NCBI GenBank assembly: GCA_015485125.1
Contig: WFUE01000040.1
Coordinates: forward strand, 1-45,889
Reading direction: 5' to 3'
Source of the DNA: Lysobacterales bacterium
GTDB lineage: Bacteria > Pseudomonadota > Gammaproteobacteria > Xanthomonadales > S139-57
Length of the DNA stretch: 45,889 nucleotides
This document shows, piece by piece, positions 6,482 to 36,558 of the stretch. Within the stretch, counting starts at the first letter, position 1, and the number at the start of each line of letters is the position of its first letter. The notes under the pieces are model-generated. The model was not told where the DNA came from. It worked only from the letters and a program-made list of their open reading frames with translations, and searched no databases. The translations under genes were made by a program, and so were the position numbers.

Positions 6482-6530
6482 GGTTCCCGCTACTGTTTGC
6501 CTGTGGTGAATGGATGTTTGGAGGCTTGAA

Positions 6531-7568
6531 GTGGATATTGCCGAACTGTTGGCCTTTTCGGTGAAGAATAATGCATCGGACCTGCACTTGTCTGCCGGTC
6601 TGCCGCCGATGATTCGGGTGGACGGCGATGTGCGGCGCATCAATCTGCCGGCACTGGACCAGAAAACCCTGCACGCGCTGATCTACGACATCATGTCGGA
6701 CAAGCAGCGCAAGGATTACGAAGAGTTTCTCGAGGTGGATTTCTCCTTCGAGATTCCCGGCCTGGCCCGCTTCCGGGTCAACGCCTTCAACCAGAATCGG
6801 GGATCGGGCGCGGTGTTCCGGACCATTCCCACCAATATCCTCACGCTGGAGGATCTGAATGCGCCGGCGGTATTCAAGGAAATCATCAATGTGCCCCGGG
6901 GGCTGATTCTGGTGACCGGGCCCACCGGTTCGGGTAAGTCCACCACCCTGGCGGCGATGATCGACCACATCAACAAGACCGAGCAGGGGCATATTCTTAC
7001 CATCGAGGACCCCATCGAATTTGTGCACACTTCCAACAAGTGTCTGATCAACCAGCGGGAAGTGCACCGGGATACCCACGGCTTCAACGAAGCGTTGCGC
7101 TCGGCCCTGCGGGAAGACCCGGACATCATCCTGGTGGGCGAGCTACGGGATATCGAGACCATACGCCTGGCCCTGACGGCGGCGGAAACCGGCCACCTGG
7201 TCTTCGCCACCCTGCACACCAGCTCCGCGCCCAAGACCATCGACCGGATCATCGATGTATTCCCGGCCGGGGAAAAGCCCATGGTGCGCTCCATGCTGTC
7301 CGAATCCCTGCGGGCGGTGATTTCCCAGACCTTGCTGAAGAAGGTGGGTGGCGGGCGGATTGCCGCGCACGAGATCATGGTGGGCATACCCGCCATTCGC
7401 AACCTGATCCGCGAGGACAAGGTGGCGCAGATGTATTCCGCCATCCAGACCGGGCAGAACTATGGCATGCAGACACTGGACCAGAACCTGCAGGATCTGG
7501 TTCGCACCGGCAAGATCACCAAGCAGGCCGCCTATTCGCGCGCGCAGAACAAGGCCCTGTTCCAGTAA
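6531..7568 (+). CDS. pilT: Type IV pilus retraction ATPase PilT
   Basis: GTG start DIAELLAF after GGAGG; GPTGSGKST, TIEDPIE, AIRNLIRE. Confidence 0.97.
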   Translation: MDIAELLAFSVKNNASDLHLSAGLPPMIRVDGDVRRINLPALDQKTLHALIYDIMSDKQRKDYEEFLEVDFSFEIPGLARFRVNAFNQNRGSGAVFRTIPTNILTLEDLNAPAVFKEIINVPRGLILVTGPTGSGKSTTLAAMIDHINKTEQGHILTIEDPIEFVHTSNKCLINQREVHRDTHGFNEALRSALREDPDIILVGELRDIETIRLALTAAETGHLVFATLHTSSAPKTIDRIIDVFPAGEKPMVRSMLSESLRAVISQTLLKKVGGGRIAAHEIMVGIPAIRNLIREDKVAQMYSAIQTGQNYGMQTLDQNLQDLVRTGKITKQAAYSRAQNKALFQ

Positions 7569-7580
7569 GGAGACGCCGTC

Positions 7581-8699
7581 ATGGATTTCAATTCCTACCT
7601 CAAGCTGATGGCCCACAAGAAGGCCTCGGACCTGTTCATCACCGCCGGCGTGCCGCCCAGCATCAAGGTCAATGGCCGGCTCTCGCCCGTGGGGCAGAAC
7701 CCGCTGACACCGGGGCAGGCGCGGGATCTGGTCCTGGGTGTGATGACACCCAGCCAACGGGAGGAATTCGAGGCCACCCACGAGTGCAATTTCGCCATCG
7801 GCGTGGCGGGTATCGGCCGCTTCCGGGTCAGCGCCTTCTACCAGCGCAATCATGTGGGCATGGTGCTGCGGCGCATCGAGACCAAGATTCCCACGGTGGA
7901 GCAGCTCAACCTGCCGCCGATCCTCAAGAATCTGTCCATGACCAAGCGGGGCATCATCATCATGGTGGGTGCCACCGGCACGGGTAAGTCTACTTCACTG
8001 GCGGCGATGATCGGCTACCGCAATCTCAACAGTACCGGCCATATCATCACCATCGAAGACCCCATCGAATACGTGCACAAGCACGAGGGTTGCATCATCA
8101 CCCAGCGGGAGGTGGGTATCGACACCGATTCCTTCGAGATCGCCCTGCGCAACACCCTGCGGCAGGCGCCGGATGTGATCATGATCGGGGAGATTCGTAC
8201 CCGGGAAACCATGGAACATGCCATCGCCTTTGCCGAAACCGGTCACCTGTGCATGGCCACCCTGCACGCCAACAACGCCAACCAGGCGCTGGACCGCATC
8301 CTGCACTTTTTCCCCGAAGACCGGCGCGATCAGTTGCTGATGGACCTGTCTCTCAATCTCAAGGCCATGATCGCTCAGCAGCTCATCCCCACGCCGGACG
8401 GCAAGAGCCGGCGGGCGGCGGTGGAGATCCTGCTCAATTCGCCGCTGGCACAGGAGATGATCCGCAAGGGCGAGATTCACAAGCTCAAGGATCTGATGAA
8501 GGAATCCACCAACCAGGGCATGAAAACCTTTGATCAGGCCCTGTTCGAGCTGTATCAGGCCGGTGAAATCACCTATGAGGACGCGCTGCGACACGCCGAT
8601 TCCGCCAACGAGGTGCGCCTGCGCATCAAACTCAGCCAGGGTGGCGATGCCAATACCCTCTCTTCCGGCCTGGACGGCATCGAACTGATGGAAGACTGA
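7581..8699 (+). CDS. pilU: Type IV pilus retraction ATPase PilU
   Basis: ASDLFIT, GATGTGKST, LHANNANQ, TFDQAL; follows pilT. Confidence 0.96.
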   Translation: MDFNSYLKLMAHKKASDLFITAGVPPSIKVNGRLSPVGQNPLTPGQARDLVLGVMTPSQREEFEATHECNFAIGVAGIGRFRVSAFYQRNHVGMVLRRIETKIPTVEQLNLPPILKNLSMTKRGIIIMVGATGTGKSTSLAAMIGYRNLNSTGHIITIEDPIEYVHKHEGCIITQREVGIDTDSFEIALRNTLRQAPDVIMIGEIRTRETMEHAIAFAETGHLCMATLHANNANQALDRILHFFPEDRRDQLLMDLSLNLKAMIAQQLIPTPDGKSRRAAVEILLNSPLAQEMIRKGEIHKLKDLMKESTNQGMKTFDQALFELYQAGEITYEDALRHADSANEVRLRIKLSQGGDANTLSSGLDGIELMED

Positions 8700-10656: not shown

Positions 10657-10868
10657 TGTACAAATACGAAATCATTCTCTATTGGAGCGAGCCAGATCAG
10701 CTGTTTGTGGCCGAGGTGCCCGAATTGCCCGGCTGCGTGGCGCATGGTAAAACGCAGGATGAGGCACTGAAGCAGGCCCGTATTGCCATGGGCTTGTGGC
10801 TGGATACGGCCCGTGAACAGGGTGAGCCGATTCCCGAACCCAAGGGTCGGCGGTTAATGTATGCCTGA
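10653..10868 (+). CDS. hicB: HicB family antitoxin (short, no DNA-binding tail)
   Basis: YEIILYWSEPDQLFVAEVPELPGCVAHGKTQDEAL...GEPIPEP; ATGA overlap with the original hicA stop. Confidence 0.9.
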   Translation: MMYKYEIILYWSEPDQLFVAEVPELPGCVAHGKTQDEALKQARIAMGLWLDTAREQGEPIPEPKGRRLMYA

Positions 10869-11382
10869 CAGGAGAAACCGGGGATACGCCTTGCGTGCTA
10901 TGCGTTGGTGGGTGGTGTTGTTCCTCTGGTCCTGCTCGCTCACCGCCGCCGAACTGCCCCACTATGACCCGGAAGCACAACCGGATCAGGAACTGGCCAC
11001 GGCACTGGCCGAGGCCCGCCAGGGCGGGCGCAAGGTGTTGCTGTTGTTCGGTTCGGAGTGGTGTCAGGATTGCCGCAGCCTCAACCGCCGCCTGATGCAG
11101 GCACCGTTGAAGCATACCCTGGCCGATGCGGTGGTCGTGGTGCATGTGGATGTGGGCAACTGGGACCGCAATCAGGATTTTGCCGCCCGCTATGACCACC
11201 CGGAAGCCAGGGGCATTCCGGCACTGGCCTTGCTGGATGCCGATGGGCGAACGTTGATGGTCACCCGCGCCGGTGAGCTGGCCAATGTCAGCAGCATGGG
11301 CAATGACGCGCTCAACGACTGGTTCAAGAGCCGCCTGCGCCAGTTTTCACGGCGAGGGCCAGAGACGGCTGGAAGCCGGTGA
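10861..11382 (+). CDS. Secreted thioredoxin-fold protein (start may be 10900)
   Basis: Signal peptide, FGSEWCQDC, GIP cis-Pro loop. Confidence 0.85.
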   Translation: MPDRRNRGYALRAMRWWVVLFLWSCSLTAAELPHYDPEAQPDQELATALAEARQGGRKVLLLFGSEWCQDCRSLNRRLMQAPLKHTLADAVVVVHVDVGNWDRNQDFAARYDHPEARGIPALALLDADGRTLMVTRAGELANVSSMGNDALNDWFKSRLRQFSRRGPETAGSR

Positions 11383-15024: not shown

Positions 15025-15762
15025 ATGAGCGATTCCCCGTTGACCGGCATCCGTGTGGTGCTGGTGGAAACCCATTACGCCGGCAATATCGGTGCCACGG
15101 CCCGTGCCATGAAAACCATGGGACTGCGGGATCTGTGGCTGGTGGCCCCCCGTTGTACGTTGAATGCGGAAGCCCGCATGATGGCGGCCTCGGCCCAGGA
15201 TGTACTGCAAGGTGTCCAGCAGGTGGAGCGGCTGGAACAAGCCCTGGCTGGTGTGGATCTGGCCGTGGCCCTGAGCCATCGTGGCCGCAGCGCCGATTGG
15301 CCGGTGTGGGATGTGGAGGAAACCGCCGATGCGGTGCTGGGGCAGGTGGCCCGGGGAGCCAGTGTGGCACTGGTGTTCGGGCCGGAGCCTTCCGGCCTGC
15401 GCTCGGAGCATCTTTACCAGTGCCAGGCGCAATGCCGTATTCCTTCCCATCCGGATTGCTCCAGTCTCAATCTGGCACAGGCGGTACAGGTCGTGTCCTA
15501 TGCGCTCTATCGCCGGCAGGCGGCGCCGGTGGCAGGTTCCACGCCACCACAACGGGCGGAACGCAAGGCGCTGGAGGCCTTTTTTACCCTGCTGGATACC
15601 TTGCTATGTGAAAGTGATTTCGCCCTGGCGCCGAGGGAAAAGGTGCTGGCCCGGCTCAAGGCTATTTATCTCAAGGCGGGCCTGACGCCCAGGGAGCTGG
15701 GATTGTTGCACGGCTTCATGGCCAGCTTGAAAGAAAAGATGACTCAGAAAGGCCAGAGGTAA
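15025..15762 (+). CDS. trmJ: TrmJ/LasT SPOUT RNA methyltransferase
   Basis: IRVVLVETHYAGNIGATARAMKTMG, FGPEPSGL, SSLNLAQAVQV. Confidence 0.85.
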   Translation: MSDSPLTGIRVVLVETHYAGNIGATARAMKTMGLRDLWLVAPRCTLNAEARMMAASAQDVLQGVQQVERLEQALAGVDLAVALSHRGRSADWPVWDVEETADAVLGQVARGASVALVFGPEPSGLRSEHLYQCQAQCRIPSHPDCSSLNLAQAVQVVSYALYRRQAAPVAGSTPPQRAERKALEAFFTLLDTLLCESDFALAPREKVLARLKAIYLKAGLTPRELGLLHGFMASLKEKMTQKGQR

Positions 15763-16577
15763 TCCAGCCAGCTTTTACCGGTTTTCTCCATGGGGTGCTT
15801 GAGGTTCTGCCGGTTGGCGGCCAGGGTCTGGCGGGTGTCGGCGGCCAGCCTGGGTTTGTTCAGCCCGTCGTAGGCCTGGGCCAGGATTTCCAGCGCCTCG
15901 ATGCTCTGCGGGGTTTCCGGAAAATGCTCGATGGTATAGCGCGCGCGGTTCTGGGCAGCAATCCAGGCACCCCGGCGCAGGTAGTAGCGAGCCACCTGCA
16001 GTTCCTGTTCGGCCAGCAGGTTCTTGAGATAGACCATGCGCTGGCGGGCATCGGCGGCATAGCGGCTATCCGGGAAACGGTTGATCAGATCGCTGAAATC
16101 GTAAAAGGCCTGTTCAGAAAACTGCAAGTCGCGGGAGTATCTGGCTTCTGGCAGGAAGCGGTCGAAAAAATTCTTGCTGCGTTCGAAATTCACCAGTCCC
16201 TTGAGATAATAGGCATAGTCCACCTGCTTGTGGGTGGGGTAGGTGCGGATGAAGCGCTTGGCCGCTGCCAGTGCCTTTTCCGGCTGGTCATTGCGAAAAT
16301 AGGCATAGGCCAGTTGCAGCTGTGCCTGTTCGGCATAAGGGCTGAAGGGGAAGCGGGCCTGCAGGCGGCGCAGATACTGCGTGGCCCGCGGGAAGTTGCC
16401 GACCTTCAGGGCATGTTCGGCATCTTCATACAGCTGGGCTGCGGTCAGGGTTTCCGTTTCATGGGTCTTGCCCTTGGTGCTGCTGCAGCCCGTGCTGCCC
16501 AGCAACAGGGCCAGTGCCGCTAGCAGAACGGCGGTATGCAGGAATGTCTTTTTCACTTCAGTGTGTACCTGGCGCAT
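15744..16577 (-). CDS. bamD: Outer membrane assembly lipoprotein BamD (start 16577, or GTG at 16556)
   Basis: Lipobox STGC, TPRs, FPFSPYAEQAQL, DYAYYLKGL, SRYAADARQRM. Confidence 0.93.
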   Translation of the reverse strand: MRQVHTEVKKTFLHTAVLLAALALLLGSTGCSSTKGKTHETETLTAAQLYEDAEHALKVGNFPRATQYLRRLQARFPFSPYAEQAQLQLAYAYFRNDQPEKALAAAKRFIRTYPTHKQVDYAYYLKGLVNFERSKNFFDRFLPEARYSRDLQFSEQAFYDFSDLINRFPDSRYAADARQRMVYLKNLLAEQELQVARYYLRRGAWIAAQNRARYTIEHFPETPQSIEALEILAQAYDGLNKPRLAADTRQTLAANRQNLKHPMEKTGKSWLDYLWPF

Positions 16578-16755
16578 GCAAATCAGCGCGCAAGGATAGC
16601 GCATCAAAGGTTAATGAACCAGAAAGGTATGGCAGGAGGTTGATTGGTCTCGGTCCCGGCTGTGGAAATGTGATGCAATGGGCGCTCCGCTGCAAGAATA
16701 TGTGGCAGGATCGGGTCAAACCACAAGATCGACGGGTATCGGGAGAGAGACACTC

Positions 16756-17874
16756 ATGCGGAAACTCATGGAACGGGCCAGAACGGGCCTGTGTGGCGCA
16801 TGCCTGTTGCTGGTCGGGCTGCCTGCCCTGGCAGCTTCCGGTTGCGATGATTTGAGTGCCATCGCCGAGACGGCGAATGTAGATTATGAAAGCCAGATTC
16901 AACCCATCTGGAATGCCAACTGTGCCGGTTGCCATACCAATGGGGGCAGCAATGGCGGGTTGAAACTGGATGCCGGCCAGTCACTGGATAATCTGGTGCG
17001 CATCCGTTCCACCAGCAGTAGCCTGCGGCGGGTGGAACCTGGCCAGGCGGCACAATCCTTTCTCTTCCAGAAGCTCAACTGTGACCAACCAGATGCCGGG
17101 GCACGTATGCCCCAGGGTGGGCAGTTGAGCATGACCCTGCAGGCACTGGTTCGGGATTGGATCAACCAGGGTGCACTGGCGCAGGCTGGGGCTTCCAATT
17201 CACCGCCCCAGGCCCAGGATGACCGTGCCAGTACCGCTTTTGGTGAGGCGGTGAGCATTGATGTGCTGGCCAATGACAGCGATGCCGATGGTGACACACT
17301 CTCGCTGGTTTCCGTGGCCGACCCGGCTCAGGGCACGGCCGTGATTCAAAACGGCCAGATCCTGTACACGCCGGATTTCGGCTTCAGCGGCAGTGATGGT
17401 TTCAGCTACAGCGTTTCTGACGGGCAGAACACGGCCACGGCACAGGTGAGCGTATCCGTGGCGGCAGCTCCCTTCGAGCTGAATTTCGGCCTGTCCGGTT
17501 CCTGGTTCAATGCCGCCACCGACGGGCAGGGTTTTGTCTTTGAAGTGGTACCCGACGATCAGGTGCTGGTGCTCTACTGGTACACCTACGCCAGCGACGG
17601 GCAGGGTGGCCAGCAGTGGCTGGTGGGTGCCGGCCCCTACAGTGGCAACCGCGCCATGGTGGATCTGCAACGGCCTGCCGGTGGCCTGTTCGACCAGGCT
17701 GGTGGCGTGGTGCGTGAAGACTGGGGCAGTGTGGAGATCGTATTCACTTCCTGCACCGAAGGCGAGTTTCATTACAGCTCCACCGTGGATGGTGTCAGCG
17801 GCAGCATTCCCATGGTGCGCATTACCGCCGACCCCTTGTGCCAGGCGCTGCTGGATCAGCAGGGGGCACAGTGA
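16756..17874 (+). CDS. Secreted monoheme c-type cytochrome + cadherin/Ig-like repeat + C-terminal WYTY domain
   Basis: Signal peptide; IQPIWNANCAGCH (CxxCH, 16921-16935) with a likely distal Met in RMP; PQAQDD...DVLANDSDADGD...YTP..GFSGSDGFSYSVSDG; SGSWFN...GQGF...WYTY. Confidence 0.8.
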   Translation: MRKLMERARTGLCGACLLLVGLPALAASGCDDLSAIAETANVDYESQIQPIWNANCAGCHTNGGSNGGLKLDAGQSLDNLVRIRSTSSSLRRVEPGQAAQSFLFQKLNCDQPDAGARMPQGGQLSMTLQALVRDWINQGALAQAGASNSPPQAQDDRASTAFGEAVSIDVLANDSDADGDTLSLVSVADPAQGTAVIQNGQILYTPDFGFSGSDGFSYSVSDGQNTATAQVSVSVAAAPFELNFGLSGSWFNAATDGQGFVFEVVPDDQVLVLYWYTYASDGQGGQQWLVGAGPYSGNRAMVDLQRPAGGLFDQAGGVVREDWGSVEIVFTSCTEGEFHYSSTVDGVSGSIPMVRITADPLCQALLDQQGAQ

Positions 17875-18341
17875 GACGCGCTGTCCCGTGGTTGTTCCTG
17901 TTGCTATGGCTGGCTGCGGCCCATGCCGAGGTGCCGCAGGCACAATGGTCGCCTTTGCAGGGGGAGGGCAGCGTCCGCCTGGCGGATTATCGGGGCCAGC
18001 TGGTCTGGCTGGATTTCTGGGCATCCTGGTGCGGCCCGTGCCGGAAATCCCTGCCCGCCTACCAGAAGCTCTGGGAACGCTACCATGCACGCGGGTTCAC
18101 GGTTTTGGCGGTTTCGCTGGATGAAGACCGGGCGGCGGCACAACGGATGGTTGAGCCCATGGCGCTGGCTTATCCCCTGCTCTGGGATATGAATCAGGAC
18201 TCGCCCCAGTCCTTTGGTGTGCGCGCCATGCCCATGGCCTTTCTCATTGATGCGGATGGGGAAGTGGTCTGGTCCCATGCGGGGTTTCGCCCGGGTGATG
18301 AGGTGGAAATCGCCCGCCAGATCGAGGCTCATCTGCCATGA
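17871..18341 (+). CDS. TlpA/ResA-like periplasmic thiol-disulfide oxidoreductase
   Basis: GTG start overlaps the upstream stop (GTGA); signal peptide; DFWASWCGPC; AMP. Confidence 0.9.
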   Translation: MRRAVPWLFLLLWLAAAHAEVPQAQWSPLQGEGSVRLADYRGQLVWLDFWASWCGPCRKSLPAYQKLWERYHARGFTVLAVSLDEDRAAAQRMVEPMALAYPLLWDMNQDSPQSFGVRAMPMAFLIDADGEVVWSHAGFRPGDEVEIARQIEAHLP

Positions 18342-18547
18342 AGCCGCTTTTGTGTGTCTTCCTCATGCTCGCTACCTTGACCGGTTGCGCCACCGTGCAG
18401 CCCTGGCAACGAGGCACTCTGGCGCGAGCGGACATGCAGCTGCGCTATCCGGCTGCCGACCAAACCCTGTGTGATCACATCTTCGCCGCCAAGGAGGCGG
18501 CTTCCGGCGGCATGGGTGCCCATGGAGGGGGCTGTGGCTGCAACTGA
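18338..18547 (+). CDS. DUF4266-like lipoprotein
   Basis: Lipobox LTGC, VQPWQRGTLA..DM, KEAASGG, C-terminal GGGCGCN. Confidence 0.85.
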   Translation: MKPLLCVFLMLATLTGCATVQPWQRGTLARADMQLRYPAADQTLCDHIFAAKEAASGGMGAHGGGCGCN

Positions 18548-19697
18548 TCGCAAGCTGCGACAAGGCTTGCAGCGGCTTTCCTTGCAGGCGGCGGCATTGG
18601 CGGTTTTGCCGGTACAGGCCGCCGAGCCACCGGAAGCCGGCCTGACCCTGCGCCAGAGCTTGTATCAGGAAGCGGATTTACCAGCAGATCAGTTGCAGTT
18701 TGGCAGCAACCGGCGTTATCGCATCCACATCAGCGAACTGCAAGCCGAGCTGCCGCTGGGCCGGCGCCAGGACTGGGGCTTGCGCATCCAGGCCAGTCAC
18801 GAGAGCATGAGTGGTGCCTCGCCCATGGCCAGCATTCGTGGAGAAAACGACCAGCCACGCCTGCTGATGAGCGGCGCGACCATTCGTGAGACGCGCAATG
18901 ATCTGAATGTAGTGCTGACCTGCTACCGGCCCGCGGGCACGCAGGGGTTTTCCCTGTATCTGTCGGAGGAAAACGATTACCGCTCCCGTGGTGGCGGCTG
19001 GTTCTTCAGCCGGGATTTCGACCGCAAGCACACTACCTTCAGTCTGAGTGCCCAGGCCTATCAGGACCGGTTGCGCCCCACCGACGCCGAACTGTACGGG
19101 CGGATCATTGCAGCCAGCAAGCAGCGCCGCCTGCTGGAAGCCGGCCTGACCCGGGTGATCAATGCGGAAACCCTGGCCAGCGTGTCGATCAGCCGTACCT
19201 GGCTGGATGGTTATCTGTCCGATCCCTACAAGCTGGCGGATGTGCGCCCGGACCGCAACGGCCAGTGGACGGCCAGCCTGCAACTTCGTCATTTCTGGAA
19301 GCCCTGGCAACTGGCACAGCATCTGGACTGGCGCTACTACAAGGATGATTTCGGCACCCGGGCACATACCTGGCAGCTGTCGGCTTTTCGCCGGTTGGGG
19401 CCGGTGCATCTGGGTCTGAGCCTGCGGGCCTACCGCCAGAGCGCGGCCCGTTTCTACACGCCCTTCGCCTTTGAACTGCCGCCGGATGTGGCACAGAGCA
19501 GTGATTTTCGCCTGTCCGCCTTCGGCGCGCTGGCCGCCAACCTCAGCGCCCGCTGGCAATGGCGGGACTGGGCCCTGACCGCCGTGGCGCAGCGTTATCA
19601 TGCCGAGGCCGGCTGGGGACTGGACAGAACCGGTCCGGCCCATCCGGCCCTGCTGGATTTTTCCCGTCTGACCCTGGAGCTGCACTATCGCTTCTGA
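18534..19697 (+). CDS. DUF3570-like outer-membrane beta-barrel protein
   Basis: GTG start (AATD) after GGAGGGG; signal peptide; MSGAS and MSGAT; SEENDYRS; GYLSDPYK; SSDFRLSAFG; C-terminal beta-signal LHYRF. Confidence 0.8.
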   Translation: MAATDRKLRQGLQRLSLQAAALAVLPVQAAEPPEAGLTLRQSLYQEADLPADQLQFGSNRRYRIHISELQAELPLGRRQDWGLRIQASHESMSGASPMASIRGENDQPRLLMSGATIRETRNDLNVVLTCYRPAGTQGFSLYLSEENDYRSRGGGWFFSRDFDRKHTTFSLSAQAYQDRLRPTDAELYGRIIAASKQRRLLEAGLTRVINAETLASVSISRTWLDGYLSDPYKLADVRPDRNGQWTASLQLRHFWKPWQLAQHLDWRYYKDDFGTRAHTWQLSAFRRLGPVHLGLSLRAYRQSAARFYTPFAFELPPDVAQSSDFRLSAFGALAANLSARWQWRDWALTAVAQRYHAEAGWGLDRTGPAHPALLDFSRLTLELHYRF

Positions 19698-19701
19698 ATG
19701 G

Positions 19702-20565
19702 TTGCAGGCGGATTTCACCGCCATGGGCTGCCCCTGTGAAATACGCCTGCTGGCTGAACGGCCACGGCGGGCCATCGAGGCGGCAGTGGAAGAAATCCGC
19801 CGTCTGGAACACAAGTACAGCCGCTGGCAGCCGGACAGCTGCTGGTTACGGACGCTTTCCGCCGCCAGCAAACCGGCGGGGGCCGTACTGGATGCGGAAA
19901 CGGAACAGCTGCTGCGCTTCGCGCTGGAAGCCTGGCAGTTGACCGAAGGGCATTTCCACCCCGGTCTACTGCCACTCTGGCAATACTGGCAGCAGGTGGA
20001 GCAACCGGATGACGCTACCATTGCCGCCCTGCTGGCGCAGGCGGATTTGTCCGGGCTGCGTCTGGAAAACGGACAGCTGTGGTTGGCCGAGGGGCTGGAA
20101 CTGGACCTGGACGGGCTGGTAAAGGAATATGCCGTGGACCGGGCCACGGAAGTCCTGCTGCGAGAGGCCGGTTCGATCGCGGGTGCGCAGGTCAATCTGG
20201 GCGGGGATGTGCGCGTGGCCGGGCCCGAGCCCCAGCGGGTGGGCATCGTCAGCATGGGCGGGGTTTCCCGAAGGGTCTGGCTGCGTGATCAGGCACTGGC
20301 CAGCAGCGGTACCCGCGAGCGCGGGCGGGAGATTCAGGGCCGCTGGTACAGTCATCTGATCCATCCCCAAACCGGCTGGCCCCTGCCGGGCAGGGACTTG
20401 CAATTGAGCGTATGCTCCCCCACTTGTCTGCTGGCTGGTACACTCAGCACCGCCGCGCTGCTGATGGGGGAAGCGGGGCCGGACTGGCTGCGCCGGGCCG
20501 GCGTGCCTTTTCTCTGGCAGCAAGGTGAGCGACAGATCGACCATCTCTGGAATGACGGAGCTTGA
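19702..20565 (+). CDS. apbE: FAD:protein FMN transferase (ApbE family), no signal peptide
   Basis: FTAMGCPC, LEHKYSRW, LDLDGLVKEYAVD, VNLGGD, ASSG, YSHLIHPQTGWP. Confidence 0.88.
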   Translation: MQADFTAMGCPCEIRLLAERPRRAIEAAVEEIRRLEHKYSRWQPDSCWLRTLSAASKPAGAVLDAETEQLLRFALEAWQLTEGHFHPGLLPLWQYWQQVEQPDDATIAALLAQADLSGLRLENGQLWLAEGLELDLDGLVKEYAVDRATEVLLREAGSIAGAQVNLGGDVRVAGPEPQRVGIVSMGGVSRRVWLRDQALASSGTRERGREIQGRWYSHLIHPQTGWPLPGRDLQLSVCSPTCLLAGTLSTAALLMGEAGPDWLRRAGVPFLWQQGERQIDHLWNDGA

Positions 20566-20568
20566 AGC

Positions 20569-21528
20569 ATGCGCAAGATCGAGCAGGATTTTCGGGTGAA
20601 CTTCAGCGAAGCCGGCGTTCGCCTGGATCAATTGCTGGCCCGGCACTGGCCGGCCTATTCCCGCAGCCGGCTACAGGCCTGGTGCAAGGACGGCAGCATA
20701 CAAGTGGATGGCAAGACCGCCCGCCCCGGGCAGAAGATGAAGGGCGGCGAGCAGGTGACCCTGCGCGCGGAACTGCCGGAGGAAGGCCGGGTGGAAGCCC
20801 AGGACATTCCGCTGGACATCATCCACGAGGACGAACATATCCTGGTGATCAACAAGCCTGCGGGGTTGGTGGTGCATCCGGCGGCCGGTAACCCGGACGG
20901 CACGCTGATGAATGCCTTGCTGCACCATGACCCCGGCCTGAACGCGGTACCACGCGCGGGCATCGTTCACCGGCTGGACAAGGACACCTCCGGCCTGCTG
21001 GTGGTGGCGCGCACTCTGCCGGCGCACAAGTCGCTGGTGGATCAGCTGCACGACCGCACCGTGCACCGGGAATACTATTGCGTCACCTACGGTCAGGTGA
21101 TCGCCGGCGGTACCATCGACTTGCCCATCGGCCGCGATCCGGCCGACCGCACCCGCATGACGGTGGTGGACGAAGGCAAGGAGGCCATCACCCATTACCG
21201 GGTGGAAGACCGCTGGCAGCATTTCACCGGCCTGGAAGTGCATCTGGAAACCGGACGTACCCACCAGATTCGCGTACACATGCACTGGATCGAACACCCC
21301 CTGCTGGGTGATCCGGTCTACGGTGGTCGCCTGCGTCTGCCGCGTGGCGCCAGTGATCCCCTGAAGGAAGTCCTGCAGGGGTTTCGCCGTCAGGCCCTGC
21401 ATGCGCGCAAGCTGTCGCTGGTGCACCCCGGCAGCTTCGAGGAAGTAACCTTTGAAGCGCCCTTGACGGCGGATTTGCAGCACCTGCGGCAGGTGCTGGA
21501 TGCGGAAGATGGGCTGGCATCCGCTTGA
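20569..21528 (+). CDS. rluD: 23S rRNA pseudouridine synthase RluD
   Basis: S4 domain, NKPAGLVVHP, HRLDKDTSG, GRTHQIRVH, RQALHA. Confidence 0.96.
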   Translation: MRKIEQDFRVNFSEAGVRLDQLLARHWPAYSRSRLQAWCKDGSIQVDGKTARPGQKMKGGEQVTLRAELPEEGRVEAQDIPLDIIHEDEHILVINKPAGLVVHPAAGNPDGTLMNALLHHDPGLNAVPRAGIVHRLDKDTSGLLVVARTLPAHKSLVDQLHDRTVHREYYCVTYGQVIAGGTIDLPIGRDPADRTRMTVVDEGKEAITHYRVEDRWQHFTGLEVHLETGRTHQIRVHMHWIEHPLLGDPVYGGRLRLPRGASDPLKEVLQGFRRQALHARKLSLVHPGSFEEVTFEAPLTADLQHLRQVLDAEDGLASA

Positions 21529-22240
21529 ACTGGGCCAGCCCGCGACGGTCTGCCTGGGATACACCACCCGGGAAGGGGGTGTCAGCGCATCACCCTGGGA
21601 CAGCTACAACCTCGGCATGCATTGTGGCGACCGCCCGGAAGCTGTCGCTGAAAACCGCCGGCGGCTGGCCGAACAGGCCGGCGTGACGCCGCGCTGGTTG
21701 CGGCAGGTGCATGGCTGTGCCGTGGCGGCCCGTCCGGCAGCACACGCCGACCATGAACTGCCCGAGGCCGATGCGGCCTGGACCGACCGGCCCGGTGAAG
21801 CGCTGGCCATTCTGACGGCGGATTGCCTGCCGGTATTGTGCTGGTCGGAAAGCGGCGACTGGGTCGGCGTGGCCCATGCCGGCTGGCGTGGTCTGGCCGC
21901 CGGTGTGCTACCGGCCCTGCTGGCTGCCGCGCCGGTACCACCGGGCCGGTTGGCCTGCTGGCTGGGGCCGGCCATCGGCCCACAGGCCTACGAGGTGGAT
22001 CAACCGGTACGGGCGGCCTTCAGTCACTGGTCCGGCCCCTGGCAGGCCGCCTTTCAGCCCGCCCGGCCGGGTCACTGGCAACTGGACCTGTTTGCCCTGG
22101 CACGTCTGCAATTGCAACAGGCGGGTGTGGGGAGCATTCATGGTGGCAATGACTGCACCTTCAGCCAGCCCGAGCGCTTTTTCTCCTATCGCAGGGACGG
22201 GCGGACCGGCCGGCAGGCGGTGATGGCCTGGTTGCAGTAG
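21500..22240 (+). CDS. pgeF: Peptidoglycan editing factor PgeF (YfiH)
   Basis: TTREGGVS, QVHG, TADCLPV, HAGWRG, FFSYRR; follows rluD. Confidence 0.93.
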   Translation: MRKMGWHPLELGQPATVCLGYTTREGGVSASPWDSYNLGMHCGDRPEAVAENRRRLAEQAGVTPRWLRQVHGCAVAARPAAHADHELPEADAAWTDRPGEALAILTADCLPVLCWSESGDWVGVAHAGWRGLAAGVLPALLAAAPVPPGRLACWLGPAIGPQAYEVDQPVRAAFSHWSGPWQAAFQPARPGHWQLDLFALARLQLQQAGVGSIHGGNDCTFSQPERFFSYRRDGRTGRQAVMAWLQ

Positions 22241-22250
22241 TCTCTTTTGT

Positions 22251-22685
22251 TCAGGGCTGGTGCCGGAGCCAGTCTTCCAGCATCAGGCGGGCGGCCACGC
22301 CGTCGAGCTGGCCGGCCTGCTTGCGCCGGGTCAGCCCCTGTTCCCGGCCACTCTTGTACCAGCTTCGTGCCGCCTGGGTACTGTGGCGCTCGTCCCAGTG
22401 TTCCACCGGCAGGCCGGTACGTTCGCCCAGTGCCGTGCCGAACTGGCGGGCCTTTTGACTGGTGGGGGTCACTTCCCCCTCCGGGCCCAGTGGTGCGCCG
22501 ATGATCAGCCGTTGCGGCTTCCATTCGGCAATCAGGGCTTCCAGCCGTGGCCAGTCGGGTGCGTTCTGCACGGCGGGTACGGTGGCCAGCGCCTGGGCCG
22601 TGCCGGTCAGGGTCTGACCTACCGCCACGCCGATCTTGCGATGGCCGTAGTCGAAACCCATGACCACCTGTGCCGGGCTGTTCAT
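22251..22685 (-). CDS. ruvX: Pre-16S rRNA nuclease / Holliday junction resolvase-like RuvX (YqgF)
   Basis: GFDYGHRKIGVAVG, DERHST, DGVAA. Confidence 0.92.
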   Translation of the reverse strand: MNSPAQVVMGFDYGHRKIGVAVGQTLTGTAQALATVPAVQNAPDWPRLEALIAEWKPQRLIIGAPLGPEGEVTPTSQKARQFGTALGERTGLPVEHWDERHSTQAARSWYKSGREQGLTRRKQAGQLDGVAARLMLEDWLRHQP

Positions 22686-25286: not shown

Positions 25287-25688
25287 GTGGAAGCTACGGC
25301 AAACGAAGAAGAGTTCACCGGGCTGAAAGTGATGGTGATCGACGACAGCAAGACCATCCGCCGCACGGCGGAATCGTTGCTGAAAAAGGCCGGTTGTGAT
25401 GTGGTGACCGCCATTGACGGGTTCGAGGCGTTGTCCAAGATCGCCGACCACAAGCCGGATATCATTTTTGTGGATATCATGATGCCGCGACTGGATGGCT
25501 ACCAGACTTGCGCGCTGATCAAGAACAACAGCCTGTTCAAGCAGACACCGGTCATCATGCTGTCCAGCAAGGATGGCCTGTTCGACAAGGCACGTGGGCG
25601 CATCGTGGGTTCCGAGGAGTATGTCACCAAGCCCTTTACCCGGGACGAACTGCTTGGCGCCATTCGCAAGCATGCCCGTACTCACTGA
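25287..25688 (+). CDS. pilG: Twitching response regulator PilG
   Basis: VMVIDDSKTIRRTAE, DIMMPRLDGYQTCALIK, SSKDGLFDKARGRIVGS. Confidence 0.96.
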   Translation: MEATANEEEFTGLKVMVIDDSKTIRRTAESLLKKAGCDVVTAIDGFEALSKIADHKPDIIFVDIMMPRLDGYQTCALIKNNSLFKQTPVIMLSSKDGLFDKARGRIVGSEEYVTKPFTRDELLGAIRKHARTH

Positions 25689-25717
25689 CCACCCGTCTTC
25701 CGGGGGAGAGGATTTGC

Positions 25718-26254
25718 ATGCAGGTACAGAATGAAGCATTTGCACTGTTGCAGGATCTGGAACGCCGCAGCCTGATTCATGCGGTGGGACTGCCGGAACA
25801 GGAAGGCGCCGGAGATGCCTGGACGGGTGTGGGTTTTCGACTGCATGGACAGGCGTTGGTGGCGGCCATTGACGAGATTGCCGAAATCATGCCGCTACCG
25901 CCGGTTACGCCGGTGCCCATGGCACAGGCCTGGGTGGTCGGGCTGGCCAACGTGCGGGGCACGCTGATTCCCGTGATCGATCTGCACCATTATCTGTTTG
26001 GCGAGCCGATGGGCCGCAACAAGCGGAGCCGGGTGCTGGTGGCCCGGCATGAAAGCGGTGATGTGGGGTTGCTGGTGGAAGAGATGCTGGGCCAGCGACA
26101 TTTCACCACCGAGGACGAGGTCGAAACGCCGGTCGTGGACGAGCCCATGCGGCCACTGGTGGAAGGGGCGCTGCAGCAGGGCGAGGCTGTCTGGGCCCGT
26201 ATTCATTTTGATCGTTTGTTCGAACAGGATCGATTCATGCAAGCCGCCGCCTGA
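25718..26254 (+). CDS. pilI: CheW-like PilI
   Basis: WTGVGFRL, TPVP..WVVGLANVRG; position before pilJ. Confidence 0.9.
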   Translation: MQVQNEAFALLQDLERRSLIHAVGLPEQEGAGDAWTGVGFRLHGQALVAAIDEIAEIMPLPPVTPVPMAQAWVVGLANVRGTLIPVIDLHHYLFGEPMGRNKRSRVLVARHESGDVGLLVEEMLGQRHFTTEDEVETPVVDEPMRPLVEGALQQGEAVWARIHFDRLFEQDRFMQAAA

Positions 26255-26286
26255 CAGGCGGCCTTTGAAAACTGGGGAGTTTTTTT

Positions 26287-28311
26287 ATGAGTAGCACCGC
26301 AGCCAACGTAGGCGAATCCCGTTCCACCATCAACTTTCTCTTTGTGTTGTTGGTGGTGGTTCTGGTCGCTGTTCTGGGCAACTTCCTCTGGTTGGGCCTG
26401 AAAAACGTGGATGACCGGATTTATCTGCAAAATACTTCCGAAATCCAGATCATGTCCCAGCAGATGGTTAAATACGCCAGGGAGTCGGCGCGAGGCAACT
26501 ATGAAGCCTTCAACGAGCTTCGGGCCATCAAGAAGAAACTGCAGGAAGACGTGGACAATGTCACCAAGGGCAACGAAGCTTTGGGCCTGCCCCCGCCACC
26601 GTCTGCCGTGGCCGATGAAGTGCATGAACTGGAGCAGACCTGGAAGCCCATGGCCGAGGCGGCCGATCTCATTCTCTCCAAGGAGACGGTGATTTCCGAA
26701 CTGGCGGATACCATTCAACGTTTCAACCAGAACATGTCGGTGTTGCAGACCCGTGCCGACCTGATGAACCAGTTGCTGACCAAAAAACGGGTGCCCGGGC
26801 GCACGGTGTACATCTCCAGCCAGCAGCTGGTGCTGGCCAACCGGATGCTGAAGGAGGTGGCGGATATCCAGTCCGGCGGCCCGGAAGCGGTTTCGGCCGC
26901 GGATGCCTTTGGTCGTGATGCCGCGGCCTTTGGCCGTATCCTCACGGCCCTGCTGGATGGCGACAAGGAGATGGGTGTCAAGGCCATCACTGACCAGGAA
27001 GCCTTGAAACTGCTGGGTGGGGTCTACAATGCCTTCGAGGAAATCAGCCAGGATGTGGAAAACATACTGCAATCAGCCACCCAGGTGTTCGACGTCACCG
27101 AAGCGGCTGAAAATATCTTCCTGGATTCGGAAGCCCTGCGTTTGAATGCAGAGCAACTGGCCGCCGCCTATACGGCCTACGCTGAAAAACGGTTGCTTCC
27201 CTCCGTGCTTTCCGGCCTGGCCATTGCCGCCATTGCGGCCCTGCTGATTCTCATCATTGCCTGGATGTTCTACCGTGAACAGGTGCAACGCCGTCGGGTG
27301 ACGGAACAGCTCAACCAGCGGAACCAGGAGGCCATTCTGCGCCTGCTGGACGAGATGGGATCTCTGGCTGAAGGGGATCTGACAGTAAATGCCACGGTGA
27401 CCGAGGACATTACCGGCGCCATCGCGGACTCGGTGAACTTCGCCGTGGAAGCCCTGCGTAGCCTGGTAACCACCATTAACGAAACCGCCGAACTGGTGGC
27501 AACTTCCGCCCAGGAAGCCCAGGCCACGGCAACCCACCTGGCCGAAGCCTCCGAGCATCAGGCCCAGCAGATCACCGCGGCCTCTGCGGCGGTAAACGAG
27601 ATCGCCGTCTCCATTGACGAGGTGTCCAAGAACGCTGCGGAATCCGCTGATGTGGCCCAGCGCTCGGTGGCCATCGCCCACAAGGGCGCCGAGGTGGTGC
27701 GCCAGAGCATTGAAGGCATGGATGACATTCGCGAGCAGATTCAGGAAACCTCCAAGCGAATCAAGCGACTGGGTGAATCCTCCCAGGAGATTGGCGACAT
27801 CGTGGAGCTGATCAACGATATTGCCGAACAGACCAACATTCTCGCCTTGAACGCGGCCATTCAGGCGTCGTCCGCCGGTGAGGCCGGTCGCGGTTTCGCG
27901 GTGGTGGCCGACGAAGTGCAGCGACTGGCCGAGCGCTCCACCAACGCCACCAAGCGAATTGAAACGCTGGTGAAAACCATTCAGGCCGATACGTTCGAGG
28001 CGGTGAAATCCATGGAAGAAACCACCGCCGAGGTGGTTAGCGGAGCCCACCTGGCCGAGAACGCCGGTGAGGCGCTGAACGAGATTGAAAAGGTGTCCAA
28101 TGATTTGGCGGACCTGATTCAGAACATCTCCGAGGCGGCCCGGCAACAGTCGGCTGCTGCCACCAACATTTCCGGCACCATGAACGTGATTCAGGAAATC
28201 ACCACCCAGACCTCGGCCGGTACCGAACAGACAGCCGAGTCCATTGGTCGTCTGGCGGAACTGGCGACGGAATTGCGCAAGTCGGTGGCCGGCTTCAAGC
28301 TGCCGGGTTAA
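26287..28311 (+). CDS. pilJ: Methyl-accepting chemoreceptor PilJ
   Basis: Two TMs, [46 protein letters not shown]. Confidence 0.95.
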   Translation: MSSTAANVGESRSTINFLFVLLVVVLVAVLGNFLWLGLKNVDDRIYLQNTSEIQIMSQQMVKYARESARGNYEAFNELRAIKKKLQEDVDNVTKGNEALGLPPPPSAVADEVHELEQTWKPMAEAADLILSKETVISELADTIQRFNQNMSVLQTRADLMNQLLTKKRVPGRTVYISSQQLVLANRMLKEVADIQSGGPEAVSAADAFGRDAAAFGRILTALLDGDKEMGVKAITDQEALKLLGGVYNAFEEISQDVENILQSATQVFDVTEAAENIFLDSEALRLNAEQLAAAYTAYAEKRLLPSVLSGLAIAAIAALLILIIAWMFYREQVQRRRVTEQLNQRNQEAILRLLDEMGSLAEGDLTVNATVTEDITGAIADSVNFAVEALRSLVTTINETAELVATSAQEAQATATHLAEASEHQAQQITAASAAVNEIAVSIDEVSKNAAESADVAQRSVAIAHKGAEVVRQSIEGMDDIREQIQETSKRIKRLGESSQEIGDIVELINDIAEQTNILALNAAIQASSAGEAGRGFAVVADEVQRLAERSTNATKRIETLVKTIQADTFEAVKSMEETTAEVVSGAHLAENAGEALNEIEKVSNDLADLIQNISEAARQQSAAATNISGTMNVIQEITTQTSAGTEQTAESIGRLAELATELRKSVAGFKLPG

Positions 28312-28326
28312 CGGGTACGATTGCAC

Positions 28327-29214
28327 ATGTCAGGCGCACCGCTGAGACAATCCAAACTGCCTGCCGAAGGAGGGGGCATGGATGATCACAGCTTCTACTG
28401 GTGGTCGAAGAAACTGGAAGAACGAGCCGGCATTGTCATTCCGGCCAGTCGCAAGCAGTTTCTGGCCAGCAATCTCAACCAGCGCGTGCATGCCAACAAC
28501 TGTGCCAATGAAGAGGAATACTACGCAAAAGTGCTGGAAGGCCCCCTGGGGGCGCGGGAATGGGCGCAGCTTATCGACTGTCTTACGGTCCATCAGACGC
28601 ATTTTTTTCGTCATCTGCCCTCGGTGGATCTGGTGCAGACACTGGCCCGTGAATGGTATGCACAGGGAGAGGGTAAAAAACGGGAGCTGCATGCCTGGAG
28701 CGTGGGCTGTTCCACGGGAGAGGAAGCCTGGACACTGGGGATGATCCTGGGCACGGAAGCGGCCGCATACCAACAGGCCTATTTCAGCGTGCTGGGGACC
28801 GATGTCAGTCAGCCGGCCTTGAGCCTGGCCCGTCAGGCCCGTTATGACCGTGACCGCTTGCGTGAAATCCCGTCCAGCTACCGGGAACGCTGGTGCCTGC
28901 CGGATGATCTGGGTTTCAGTATTCATCCGGATCTGCGCCGGCGGGTGGCCTTTGCAACGCTGAATTTGTTGGACAAGAGTGCGGCACCCATTCTGTCCAA
29001 TCTGGATTTGATCTTTTGTCAGAATGTCTTGATTTATATGCCACGCCGTACACGGCACCAGATACTGGACCGATTTGCGGCACTGTTGCGTCCGGGAGGC
29101 GTATTGCTGTTGGGGCCGGGAGAGGTCATGAACTGGGCGCATGAAGAAATGACGCCGGTGGACCACCCCAGAACCCTGGCCTTCCGTCGTCGAGAAAGAG
29201 GAAAACAAGCATGA
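28327..29214 (+). CDS. pilK: CheR-type methyltransferase PilK (start uncertain, 28321-28378)
   Basis: THFFRH, WSVGCSTGEE, GTDVS, IFCQNVLIY. Confidence 0.88.
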   Translation: MSGAPLRQSKLPAEGGGMDDHSFYWWSKKLEERAGIVIPASRKQFLASNLNQRVHANNCANEEEYYAKVLEGPLGAREWAQLIDCLTVHQTHFFRHLPSVDLVQTLAREWYAQGEGKKRELHAWSVGCSTGEEAWTLGMILGTEAAAYQQAYFSVLGTDVSQPALSLARQARYDRDRLREIPSSYRERWCLPDDLGFSIHPDLRRRVAFATLNLLDKSAAPILSNLDLIFCQNVLIYMPRRTRHQILDRFAALLRPGGVLLLGPGEVMNWAHEEMTPVDHPRTLAFRRRERGKQA

Positions 29215-32200
29215 AACTGCAGCAGGAAATCGACCACTCCACGCTGAGCTGGGTCAAGAACGAGCTGGATCTCACCCTGAAGCAGGCCATCGAGGCACTG
29301 GAGGCCTATTCCGAAGACCGGGATGACAGCAGCCAGATGCGTTTTTGTGCCACCTATTTGCACCAGGTACAGGGCACATTGCGCATGGTGGAACTCTATG
29401 GCGCTGCCCTGCTGGTGGAGGAAATGGAACAGCTGGCCGTGGATCTGCTTGAAGGCCGGGTGGACGATGAGGAAGCCGCCTTTGATGTGTTGATGCGCGG
29501 CATGGTGCAACTGCCAGACTATCTGGATCGCCTTGTGTCCGGCCATCGGGATATTCCGGTGGTGTTTCTGCCGCTGGTCAATGAAATTCGCGCCTTGCGG
29601 GGTCAATCCCTGGCCACCGAAGGTGCCCTGTTCAATCCGGATCTGAGCCTGGGTGTGCCGGAAAGCCTGCCTGGCCCGGCGCGCCGCTATGCTGACAAGG
29701 TCCTGCGGCCCAATATCGCCCGCCTGCGTGCCGCCTATCAGGTGGGTCTGCTCAAGTGGTTCAAGGATGGGGCCAGCGCGGATCTCTACCGGCGCATGGG
29801 CCTGTTGTTCGAGCGCCTGCTTTCGGTCAGTTCGGAGCCTGCATTGCGGCAACTGTTCTGGATTACAGGCGGGGTGGTGGAAGCACTGCAGAATGATGCG
29901 CTGGAGTTGTCCAACAGCGTCAAATCCCTGTTCGGCAAGGTGGATCTTGAACTGCGCAAGATGGCCCTGAGTGGTGAGCGCCATTTCCGCCAGAACCCGC
30001 CGGAAGCCGTGATTCGCAACCTGCTCTACTATGTGGCGCAGGCACAGCCCGGTAGCTTGCTGGTGGACCAGATCAAGGCACATTACGATCTCGATGCCCT
30101 GCTGCCACGCGAAGAAGATGTGGAACATGCCATGGGCACCATGTCCGGACACAACCGGGAAGTGCTCAGCTCGGTCGGTACCGTGCTCAAGGAAGAATTG
30201 CTGGGCGTCAAGGAACAGCTGGATCTGCTGTTGCGTAAGTCGGACACCCGGGGCGAGTCGCTGGCGGAACTGTTACCCGTATTGAGCAAGGTGCGTGAAA
30301 CCCTGGCCATGCTGGGGATCGGCTATGCGCAACATGTTGTCGAGGATCAGATTGGCCGCATCGAAGCCCTGCAGACCAGTGAAGAACCGGTGGCAGAAAC
30401 CGATCTGCTGGAAATTGCCGGTTCCCTTCTGACGGTGGAATCTGCACTGGACGACCATATCCAGAGTCTTGGCCTGGCGGACGAAACCAGCGAAGAAAAC
30501 GACCAAGGTCCGGATCTGCCGGGCAGTGAAGTGCAGGAACTGCTGAAACGCCTGATCGAGGAGGTCAACACCAACCTTTCACAAGTCAAGGAATCTCTGG
30601 TTCGCTTTATCGAAGCCCCCTGGGACCATAATGCCCTGCAGGATCTGCCGGGCAAGCTGCAAGAAGTTTCGGGTGCCTTGCGCATGCTGGAGATGGAGGA
30701 ACCCGCCACCATCATGCGCGGTGTTGGACAATATGTGCAACAGGACCTGCTCGATCAGCAGCAGATACCCAGCACGCGCCAGCTGGAGCTGTTGGCCGAT
30801 GCCATCGCGGGCATGGAGTATTTCATGGAAGCGCTGGTGGATCGGCGGTCGCCAGGGCAGGTGCTTACCCATATCGCCTCCGCATTGGAAGCCCTGCGCA
30901 GTTCCGAGCCGGCGTCGGTGGCAGCCCCCGTGGAAACCGATGAAGTCTCACTGGATACGCTGGAATATTCCGAAGATCTGTTGTCGGAAGAACCGGAAAC
31001 AATCGAGCCGGACATAGGCCTGCAAGATGATTCGGGCGCGCTGAGCCCGGTAACGGAATCCGGGGAAACCGGCGAGCCGGAAGAAGCAGACATGCTGCCG
31101 GCCTTCTCCGATACCGAAACGGAGTTGACCGATACCGAAATGGAGTTGGAGGAAGCAGAGGCGGATAAAGCTGGTGAGGAACCGTTTGTCGAAGTGCCGG
31201 TTTCCGAAGAGACCCATCAAACTGAGACTCAACCTGCCGAGCCCGACATCACCGAAGCCGTGGCCCTGGAGCTGCCGGAAGCGGCACAGGCCATCGACAT
31301 CCCTCCGGTTGTCGAAGCAGATGATGAAGAGTTGCTCAACATCTTCATCGAAGAAATGGCGGAGAACATGGGCAGCATGGTGGAACAACACCAGGCCTGG
31401 CAACAGAACCCGGAGGATGCGCAGGCGCTGTCTTCCATCCGCCGTTCCTTCCATACCCTCAAGGGCTCCGGGCGCCTGATTGGCGCCAAGCGAACGGGCG
31501 AGTTCAGCTGGCACATGGAGAACATGCTCAACCGGCTGATTGACGGCAGCATCGAAGCTTCACCGGCGCTCAAGGGGCTGCTGAATATCGCCATTCACCA
31601 GACCATCCCCGCCCTGTACAACCAGTTGGCCACACAGGCGGAAGGGCCCACGGAAGACGCGCTCAGGTTGCAAATGCACATGGCTGACCAGCTGGCGGAA
31701 AACCAGCCGGTGGACGATCGCTGGCTGGCCATGCTGGCGGGAGAAAGCGCGGGAAAGCCTGAAGCCGGCACTGATTCTCACCTGGACGAGGCTGCTGCCC
31801 CCGTGGCATCGGATGACACAGCCCAGGAAGAAACAGTGTCGGCAGCCGGGGATCATGTGGCAGAAACCTTCGAGATTGCGGATACAGAAAACCGTGATGA
31901 TGAAGCAGAGACCACTGCCGAAAGCGATACAACCACAGCAGGCGAAGAGGTTGACGAAACCGGGGAAGACCGGGAAGAACCAGCAGCCGCAGCGGATGTG
32001 GATGATGAGCTGTTGGGTATCTTTGAAGTGGAAGCCCGTACCCATCTGGCAGTACTGCGTAATTGGCTGGATGCCGTTGCATCTGATTCGCGCGTGACGG
32101 AGGATGTGCGGGTTGCCTCCCATACCCTCAATGGCGCGGCCTCCATGACGGAATTGCCGGAAATTTCTGCCTTGACCGGGCCGCTGGAAGGAGTGCTCAA

Positions 32201-36549: not shown

Positions 36550-36558
36550 GGATTAACC

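Follow-up and report, generated by a model that had tools for sequence, protein, structure and literature searches.

What would a bacterium do with an outer-membrane barrel that carries covalently bound flavin on one of its own loops, and from which side of the membrane would that flavin work? The question is raised by a 45,889-nucleotide stretch of DNA from a Lysobacterales bacterium (GenBank assembly GCA_015485125.1, contig WFUE01000040.1; hereafter the window). An open reading frame (ORF) on its + strand, at 18522–19697, encodes a signal peptide followed by a predicted 16-strand outer-membrane beta-barrel. An earlier note, made from the sequence alone, had drawn attention to two tetrapeptides of the kind modified by ApbE, the flavin adenine dinucleotide (FAD):protein flavin mononucleotide (FMN) transferase. 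It described SGAS and SGAT, 20 residues apart, in a protein that ends in LHYRF and is encoded directly upstream of apbE; coordinates and codons agree with that description. Judged by its sequence, the ORF is almost certainly an ordinary member of the DUF3570 family and the flavin-carrying part of a published module of thioredoxin-like protein, DUF4266, DUF3570 and ApbE. The core finding is a rediscovery, as DUF3570 is already a published ApbE substrate (Meheust et al., 2021).

The first motif, SGAS (18810–18821 on the + strand, AGT GGT GCC TCG), spans residues 97–100 in the context ESMSGAS, and the second, SGAT (18870–18881, same strand, AGC GGC GCG ACC), spans residues 117–120; both are preceded by Met. 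FMN is attached to the final residue of such motifs, so that the predicted acceptors are Ser in SGAS and Thr in SGAT. In classical flavinylation motifs an Asp stands three residues ahead; in the window protein a Glu stands three residues ahead of SGAS, E94 being invariant among the 16 closest sequences, and no acidic residue is found at that position for the second motif. Chance does not account for the pair. When the protein was shuffled 100,000 times with its composition preserved, 4,621 of the shuffles contained one or more [ST]GA[ST] motifs, 92 contained two or more, and just 17 had two of them no more than 30 residues apart; a chance origin was rejected on these counts. The 42 proteins of the window (14,335 amino acids) hold three such motifs in total, two of them in DUF3570.

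Conservation across homologues, on which the earlier note had made its proposal depend, was found at each level of relatedness that we covered. In an alignment of the window protein with 35 of its 69 database homologues (36 rows), every sequence has G98 and S100, and at least 90% have S97, A99 and S117; in the five most divergent ones the second motif is degenerate. A search built on an alignment of 16 sequences yielded 80 related loci, mostly from uncultured Gammaproteobacteria; 78 of these encode at least two motifs, with the exact 20-residue spacing in 75 of the 78, and a single motif is present in the remaining two (L066 and L075). For a wider test we took the best 150 representatives of clusters at 50% identity and dropped five shorter than 340 amino acids. 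Strict motifs were counted in the other 145: at least two in 107, one in 35 and none in 3. In the 35 the second motif lacks its strict form, and the other site is often SGSS.

Assignment to the family is equally clear. The window protein matches PF12094 with an E value of 8.9e-37 and 127.3 bits against a cut-off of 25, residues 37–368 falling on profile positions 3–386 of 427, and the same family is present in all 69 database homologues. A DUF3570 profile search returned 3,755 cluster representatives (50% identity) at E 1e-3 or better. Two conserved [S/T]GA[S/T] motifs have been described in 228 flavinylation-associated DUF3570 proteins (Meheust et al., 2021, Fig. 3C legend; eLife 10:e66878, PMC8238504), and the window protein has both. 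In the same work the DUF3570 protein of Chlorobium luteolum was flavinylated upon coexpression with its cognate ApbE, and the modification was abolished only when Ser was replaced by Ala at both sites (PMC8238504). The coexpression and mutant experiment that the earlier note had proposed is thus published for a family member, with FMN at both sites (PMC8238504). Its recognition of ApbE-type motifs was right, and its list of classical substrates was incomplete, DUF3570 itself having been reported as a substrate (PMC8238504).

Residue numbers given here count from the ATG at 18522, which yields 391 amino acids; the database entry for the protein has 387, and alternative starts are a GTG at 18471, the first possible one in the ORF list, and a GTG at 18534. 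Many DUF3570 ORFs share a conserved N-terminal AVAATD (here 18522–18547), which appears to be a side effect of gene overlap, the conserved GGGCGCN codons of the DUF4266 gene upstream being read in another frame. The true start of DUF3570 is therefore uncertain by a few codons.

The family resemblance leaves aside the shape of the protein, on which the side of the flavins depends. An AlphaFold model computed from the 36-row alignment has a mean predicted local distance difference test score (pLDDT) of 90.9, a predicted template modelling score of 0.85 and 16 long strands. Structurally it comes closest to outer-membrane barrels of 16 strands, with Z scores of 21.9 for BamA, 20.1 for PelB, 19.9 for PgaA and 19.6 for BcsC, and Foldseek gave matches of the same kind. 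A profile search of the sequences in the PDB returned no DUF3570 relative at E values up to 1. The features expected of an outer-membrane barrel are all predicted for the window protein, namely a signal peptide (a basic N-terminus, then a hydrophobic stretch ending in VQA), an even number of strands that closes the barrel, and an aromatic C-terminal beta-signal (...LELHYRF, the last residue being Phe in 71 of the 80 related loci). Prediction thus supports the barrel and beta-signal that the earlier note had proposed. In the sources available to a literature search we found no statement calling DUF3570 an outer-membrane barrel or placing its motifs; the accessible text of a 2024 mSystems paper uses "outer membrane" once and does not name DUF3570.

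In the model, strand 3 (residues 85–98) is joined to strand 4 (121–136) by a 22-residue connection that holds both motifs, on the side opposite the termini; it also contains a small hairpin (101–106 and 112–116). Since strands 3 and 4 are adjacent, the acceptor residues 100 and 120 should be near each other. At the end of the barrel that bears the N- and C-termini the connections are short (2–5 residues), and several at the opposite end reach 13–27 residues. The alignment has 21 invariant columns, and each of them maps to the outer strand halves or outer loops, a region that makes up 225 of the 351 classified residues; the binomial probability of this is about 9e-5, the positions not being independent of one another. 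As a general rule, the N- and C-termini of barrels inserted by the beta-barrel assembly machinery (BAM) both face the periplasm. Taken with the position of the motifs opposite the termini, this rule would put the conserved site on the non-periplasmic half, with the flavins either facing the outside or tucked into the lumen from there. A relay of electrons across the outer membrane, as the earlier note had envisaged, fits the topology derived from the model.

The same model bears on a different reading, in which the barrel is flavinylated and the electrons stay in the cell. Its loops would fold into the lumen, where the flavins are reached from the periplasm, and the protein would serve as an outer-membrane-anchored scaffold for periplasmic redox chemistry between a thiol relay (the TlpA-like and DUF4266 proteins described below) and a one-electron carrier (cytochrome-like here, a cupredoxin in relatives). 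All partner proteins bear Sec or lipoprotein signals and hence start in the periplasm, the pLDDT of 89–97 over residues 81–130 is what one expects of loops packed against a barrel rather than floating ones, and outer-loop conservation is unusual for surface-exposed proteins. The invariant residues, however, sit at the outer strand ends in 21 of 21 cases, not at mid-height or at the periplasmic end, and it is hard to see why a periplasmic reaction should need a 16-strand barrel. We regard this scaffold role as possible, if somewhat doubtful.

How the flavins would be attached is suggested by the next gene. It starts 5 nt past the DUF3570 stop codon (19702–20565, + strand) and encodes an ApbE-family FAD:protein FMN transferase that has no signal peptide and starts MQADFTAMGCPCE. 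The match to PF02424 (E 1.4e-49) covers profile positions 1–258 of 266, and the protein also matches 13 solved ApbE/Ftp sequences; the alignment of its domain with the solved Treponema pallidum enzyme starts at residue 7, opposite residue 16 of that enzyme. The ORF gives 287 amino acids within a stop-to-stop frame of 297 codons, which leaves about 9 open codons ahead of the TTG start.

A blastp search detected an ApbE in 70 of the 80 loci. We scored these for a leader by the mean hydropathy over 12 residues upstream of the conserved F-x-A-M-G start, with 2.0 or more taken as an export signal; none of the 70 reaches this value, the highest being 1.88, within a run of just 14 codons. Ahead of F-x-A-M-G, fewer than 12 codons are open in 36 of the 70 loci and fewer than 25 in 47. 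Export signals on the cluster ApbE were likewise found in none of seven loci from genomes of the same order; one of these seven, L091, is from the same genus and has a close relative, L005, that was counted in the 70.

These enzymes also share a sequence peculiarity. Eleven of the 70 were dropped as cut or X-containing, and the 59 others were aligned with the window protein (60 rows). All 60 have Gly at the position of the Asp in AD-x-L-[SA]-TA of Thermotoga maritima TM1553 and T. pallidum Ftp, the Thr being kept. In Escherichia coli ApbE, D280 and T284 bind metal 1 (PMC4767422, Table 3), and from the D-x-x-x-T spacing we infer that the Gly site is the equivalent of D280. Cys occupies position 12 in 59 of the 60, and 56 have another Cys at alignment position 77, where the window protein has Ala. 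The genome encodes a second ApbE on another contig, a lipoprotein with a lipobox, which has Asp at the metal site and Val at position 12. The DUF3570-linked enzymes form a distinct type, marked by the lack of a signal peptide, the start F-x-A-M-G-x-x-C and the Gly at the metal site. In the portions of Meheust et al. (2021) that were available, the text does not mention the absence of an export signal on ApbE; Supplementary file 1 of that paper, with per-gene signal-peptide predictions, may show it (PMC8238504).

On the simplest account the ApbEs would share out the work, and the leaderless one would modify the DUF3570 precursor before export. This agrees with two observations: after coexpression of the C. 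luteolum pair in the E. coli cytoplasm the flavinylated DUF3570 was found mostly in the cell pellet and purified denatured (PMC8238504), and cytosolic ApbEs are known for cytoplasmic substrates (review PMC12052999). In Klebsiella pneumoniae, a cytosolic ApbE without signal peptide serves the cytoplasmic fumarate reductase (PMC12052999). As in the present genome, it occurs alongside another ApbE that is a lipoprotein; in contrast to that case, the substrate next to apbE in the window has a signal peptide and a beta-signal, so that modification would have to precede export.

The peculiarities of the enzyme could also be turned against flavinylation by it. The motifs might be unmodified, or modified by the exported lipoprotein ApbE, with the cluster ApbE serving in FAD hydrolysis or binding; the missing signal peptide, the Gly at the metal site in 60 of 60 sequences and the second ApbE with its lipobox all suit this explanation. 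We consider it highly improbable. A leaderless apbE after DUF3570 in 70 of the 80 loci argues for a dedicated pair of enzyme and substrate, the motifs are strongly conserved, and coexpression in the E. coli cytoplasm did flavinylate DUF3570, although the product was mostly in the pellet and purified denatured (PMC8238504).

The genes upstream of DUF3570 offer candidates for a source of electrons on the periplasmic side. The first of them (17838–18341, + strand) encodes a TlpA/ResA-like periplasmic thioredoxin with a signal peptide and the active-site motif WCGPC (18030–18041). It matches the AhpC-TSA, Redoxin and Thioredoxin families at E values from 5e-23 to 4e-12, its best NCBIfam match being ResA, below the cut-off of that model. 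The 2021 paper names PF13899 for the thioredoxin-like partner; the window protein matches AhpC-TSA, Redoxin and Thioredoxin_8, not that family. A thioredoxin precedes DUF4266 in 66 of the 80 related loci (blastp). A second exported thioredoxin-like protein, of the Thioredoxin_7 family (PF13899), is encoded 7 kb upstream (10861–11382), beside a HicB-like gene.

Between thioredoxin and DUF3570 lies the gene for the small lipoprotein DUF4266 (18338–18547, + strand; PF14086, E 2.4e-19), with its lipobox Cys at 18386–18388 and a Gly-rich tail ending in GCGCN, in which CGC occupies 18533–18541. DUF4266 is present in 79 of the 80 related loci. It has the character of a lipoprotein in 77 distinct sequences, and no Asp follows the lipid-bearing Cys in any of those listed. 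Residues C17, C66, G67 and C68 are invariant and the C-terminal G-C-G-C is constant among 33 aligned sequences. Modelled alone with AlphaFold, the protein has a helix at residues 39–55 and a tail (57–69) with pLDDT below 50.

The genes for thioredoxin, DUF4266, DUF3570 and ApbE abut or overlap on the + strand (17838–20565) and so form one cluster. The DsbD system of Meheust et al. (2021) has the same Pfam family with two motifs and the same neighbours as the window, i.e., a thioredoxin-like protein, a DUF4266 with a C-terminal CXC, and ApbE. That work counted 227 such clusters with DsbD and 316 without, and states that their function "remains uncertain" (PMC8238504). The window resembles the 316; one DsbD_TM match in the genome (E 9.9e-105) lies on another contig and not next to the operon. 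Two FMN_bind proteins are encoded elsewhere in the genome. FMN_bind (PF04205) is the domain of the classical substrates NqrC, RnfG and PplA, which share the motif type and the transferase family with DUF3570; fold and location are unrelated, FMN_bind being a small soluble or inner-membrane-anchored domain.

Where the window operon differs from the published clusters is in an extra first gene with a CxxCH domain (PMC8238504). This gene (16756–17874, + strand) encodes a lipoprotein-like signal ending in LAASGC, the CxxCH domain (CAGCH at 16921–16935), an Ig-like Big_9 domain (E 4e-22) and a C-terminal domain of 135 amino acids. The ORF list starts it at 16678, and the ATG at 16756 precedes the signal peptide; its end overlaps the thioredoxin gene by 37 nt. 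The CxxCH domain gives weak matches, all below cut-off, to PSCyt1, Cytochrome_CBB3 and an SO2930-family dihaem cytochrome (E 1.7e-6 for the last), and the motif is kept in all seven aligned rows that have the N-terminus, the window included. The words "without heme" in the earlier note are therefore doubtful for this operon.

In four relatives from the same order, the position of the first gene is taken by a cupredoxin of the plastocyanin/azurin type (L092, 4242–5267; L093, 4614–5384; L094, 4475–5239; L095, 114–1352 on the − strand), with PF00127 above its cut-off in all four. The cytochrome-like protein of the window's genus and these cupredoxins are joined to the same 135-residue C-terminal domain, at 31–36% identity. 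An exchange of haem for copper at one operon position, as read from the domain composition, suggests a one-electron partner for the flavins. The C-terminal domain itself (17467–17871 in the window) has the motif G-S-W-F/Y-N/D-P...G-Q/H-G-F and two conserved Cys. No Pfam family was found for it, and the nearest Atlas clusters are unnamed proteins of 150–170 amino acids. We had considered that it might be specific to the operon and rejected this, as the 2.4-Mb genome holds 10 further matches (G000 loci L097–L106) and the domain stands elsewhere behind leucine-rich repeats and other domains. Perhaps it represents an undescribed module for sorting or anchoring.

In a further explanation the barrel is a channel and its flavins act on passing cargo, for example by reducing Fe(III) or Cu(II) on uptake; the system would then serve metal assimilation, not respiration or general electron export. 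The ferrous-iron transporter VIT1 occurs in 25 DUF3570 clusters, for which iron assimilation has been proposed (PMC8238504). The cupredoxin partners in relatives and the C-terminal CXC of DUF4266 would suit copper handling, and the nearest folds are translocation barrels. The distribution is patchy as well, with DUF3570 in 8 of the 41 genomes searched within the window's order (its own genome counted), as expected of an accessory trait. Against this, among the window genes next to the operon we saw no metal transporter and no metal-responsive regulator, and a role in metal uptake appears rather unlikely to us.

The reading that we prefer joins these elements into one chain, to which we give a probability of roughly 40%. 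The leaderless cluster ApbE would put FMN on the last residue of SGAS and of SGAT while the precursor is unfolded in the cytoplasm. Once flavinylated, the precursor would pass through Sec, and BAM would insert it as a 16-strand barrel. The two FMN sites would then be neighbours atop strands 3 and 4 of this barrel, on its outer side and amid the invariant loop residues. Reducing power would pass from cytoplasmic thioredoxin through DsbD to the periplasmic TlpA-like protein, and from there to the CGC tail of the DUF4266 outer-membrane lipoprotein, which could reach the flavins through the barrel. From the flavins, electrons would finally reach an acceptor located at the outer membrane or outside it, which could be a metal ion or the cytochrome-like protein of the operon. 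The starting points of this chain are the double flavinylation of DUF3570 by a cognate ApbE, established elsewhere, and what the present loci add, namely family membership, motif conservation, the predicted fold and side, the leaderless ApbE and the make-up of the operon.

Several considerations weigh against this chain. Covalent FMN has been demonstrated for the C. luteolum protein only, and for the window flavinylation, location, the contact with DUF4266 and the direction of electron flow are predictions. Sec export of a chain that already bears FMN is an assumption. A pair of flavins is not obligatory, because 35 of the 145 representatives keep a single strict motif. The side assignment derives from the general rule on BAM-inserted barrels and not from DUF3570 data, and the model is compatible both with a flavin loop at the outer rim and with one folded into the lumen within reach of the periplasm. 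The hydropathy cut-off behind the leaderless assignment is imperfect, four real signal peptides of the genome scoring 1.81–2.57 and that of DUF3570 itself 1.81. Finally, the Gly at the metal site marks all 60 cluster ApbEs, and their activity on DUF3570 is assumed from the C. luteolum experiment.

A functional parallel would be MtrCAB of Shewanella, a porin-cytochrome conduit in which the haems sit on separate proteins threaded through a larger barrel. Both would use an outer-membrane barrel to let a chain of redox cofactors bridge periplasm and outside; unlike MtrCAB, DUF3570 would carry its cofactors, two covalently attached FMN, on a loop of the barrel itself, and thiols would feed them. 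A sequence or specific fold relationship between the two was neither found nor sought. In its most explicit form, the preferred chain would make DUF3570 a haem-free outer-membrane conduit with two FMN covalently attached side by side at its outer mouth. A dedicated leaderless ApbE would load them while the protein is still in the cytoplasm, ahead of Sec export, and the Gly-rich CGC tail of DUF4266, threaded into the barrel behind a DsbD/TlpA relay, would feed them from the periplasm. Electrons would leave the conduit for metals outside or for interchangeable one-electron carriers, which would be cytochrome c in this operon and a cupredoxin in relatives. We hold this full version to be doubtful.

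The five genes of the operon lie between the divergent bamD (15744–16607, − strand) and rluD-pgeF (20569–22240, + strand), and given the presence of DUF3570 in the minority of same-order genomes mentioned above, the operon looks like an insertion at a housekeeping junction. The rluD start lies 3 nt past apbE, and the two may be co-transcribed. A promoter scan of 15600–22400 found one candidate against a shuffle mean of 1.3, hence nothing above shuffles, and a terminator scan of the same interval gave weak terminator-like sites only, all inside genes. Further downstream (25287–37035) is a Chp/Pil-type chemosensory cluster with a response regulator, a PilJ-like methyl-accepting chemotaxis protein, a 2,137-residue ChpA-like kinase with several histidine phosphotransfer domains, CheB and CheW; two genes for PilT/PilU-like ATPases (6510–8699) are located upstream of it.

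The window itself adds an ordinary member to a known family, and the larger interest lies in what DUF3570 does, as this is a large family (3,755 cluster representatives) with proven flavinylation. If the flavins do sit on the outer side of the barrel, the family would provide a second, thiol-powered route across the Gram-negative outer membrane besides the porin-cytochrome complexes. If a cytoplasmic ApbE does act on this outer-membrane-bound protein, a bulky cofactor would be attached before passage through Sec, which would be unusual.

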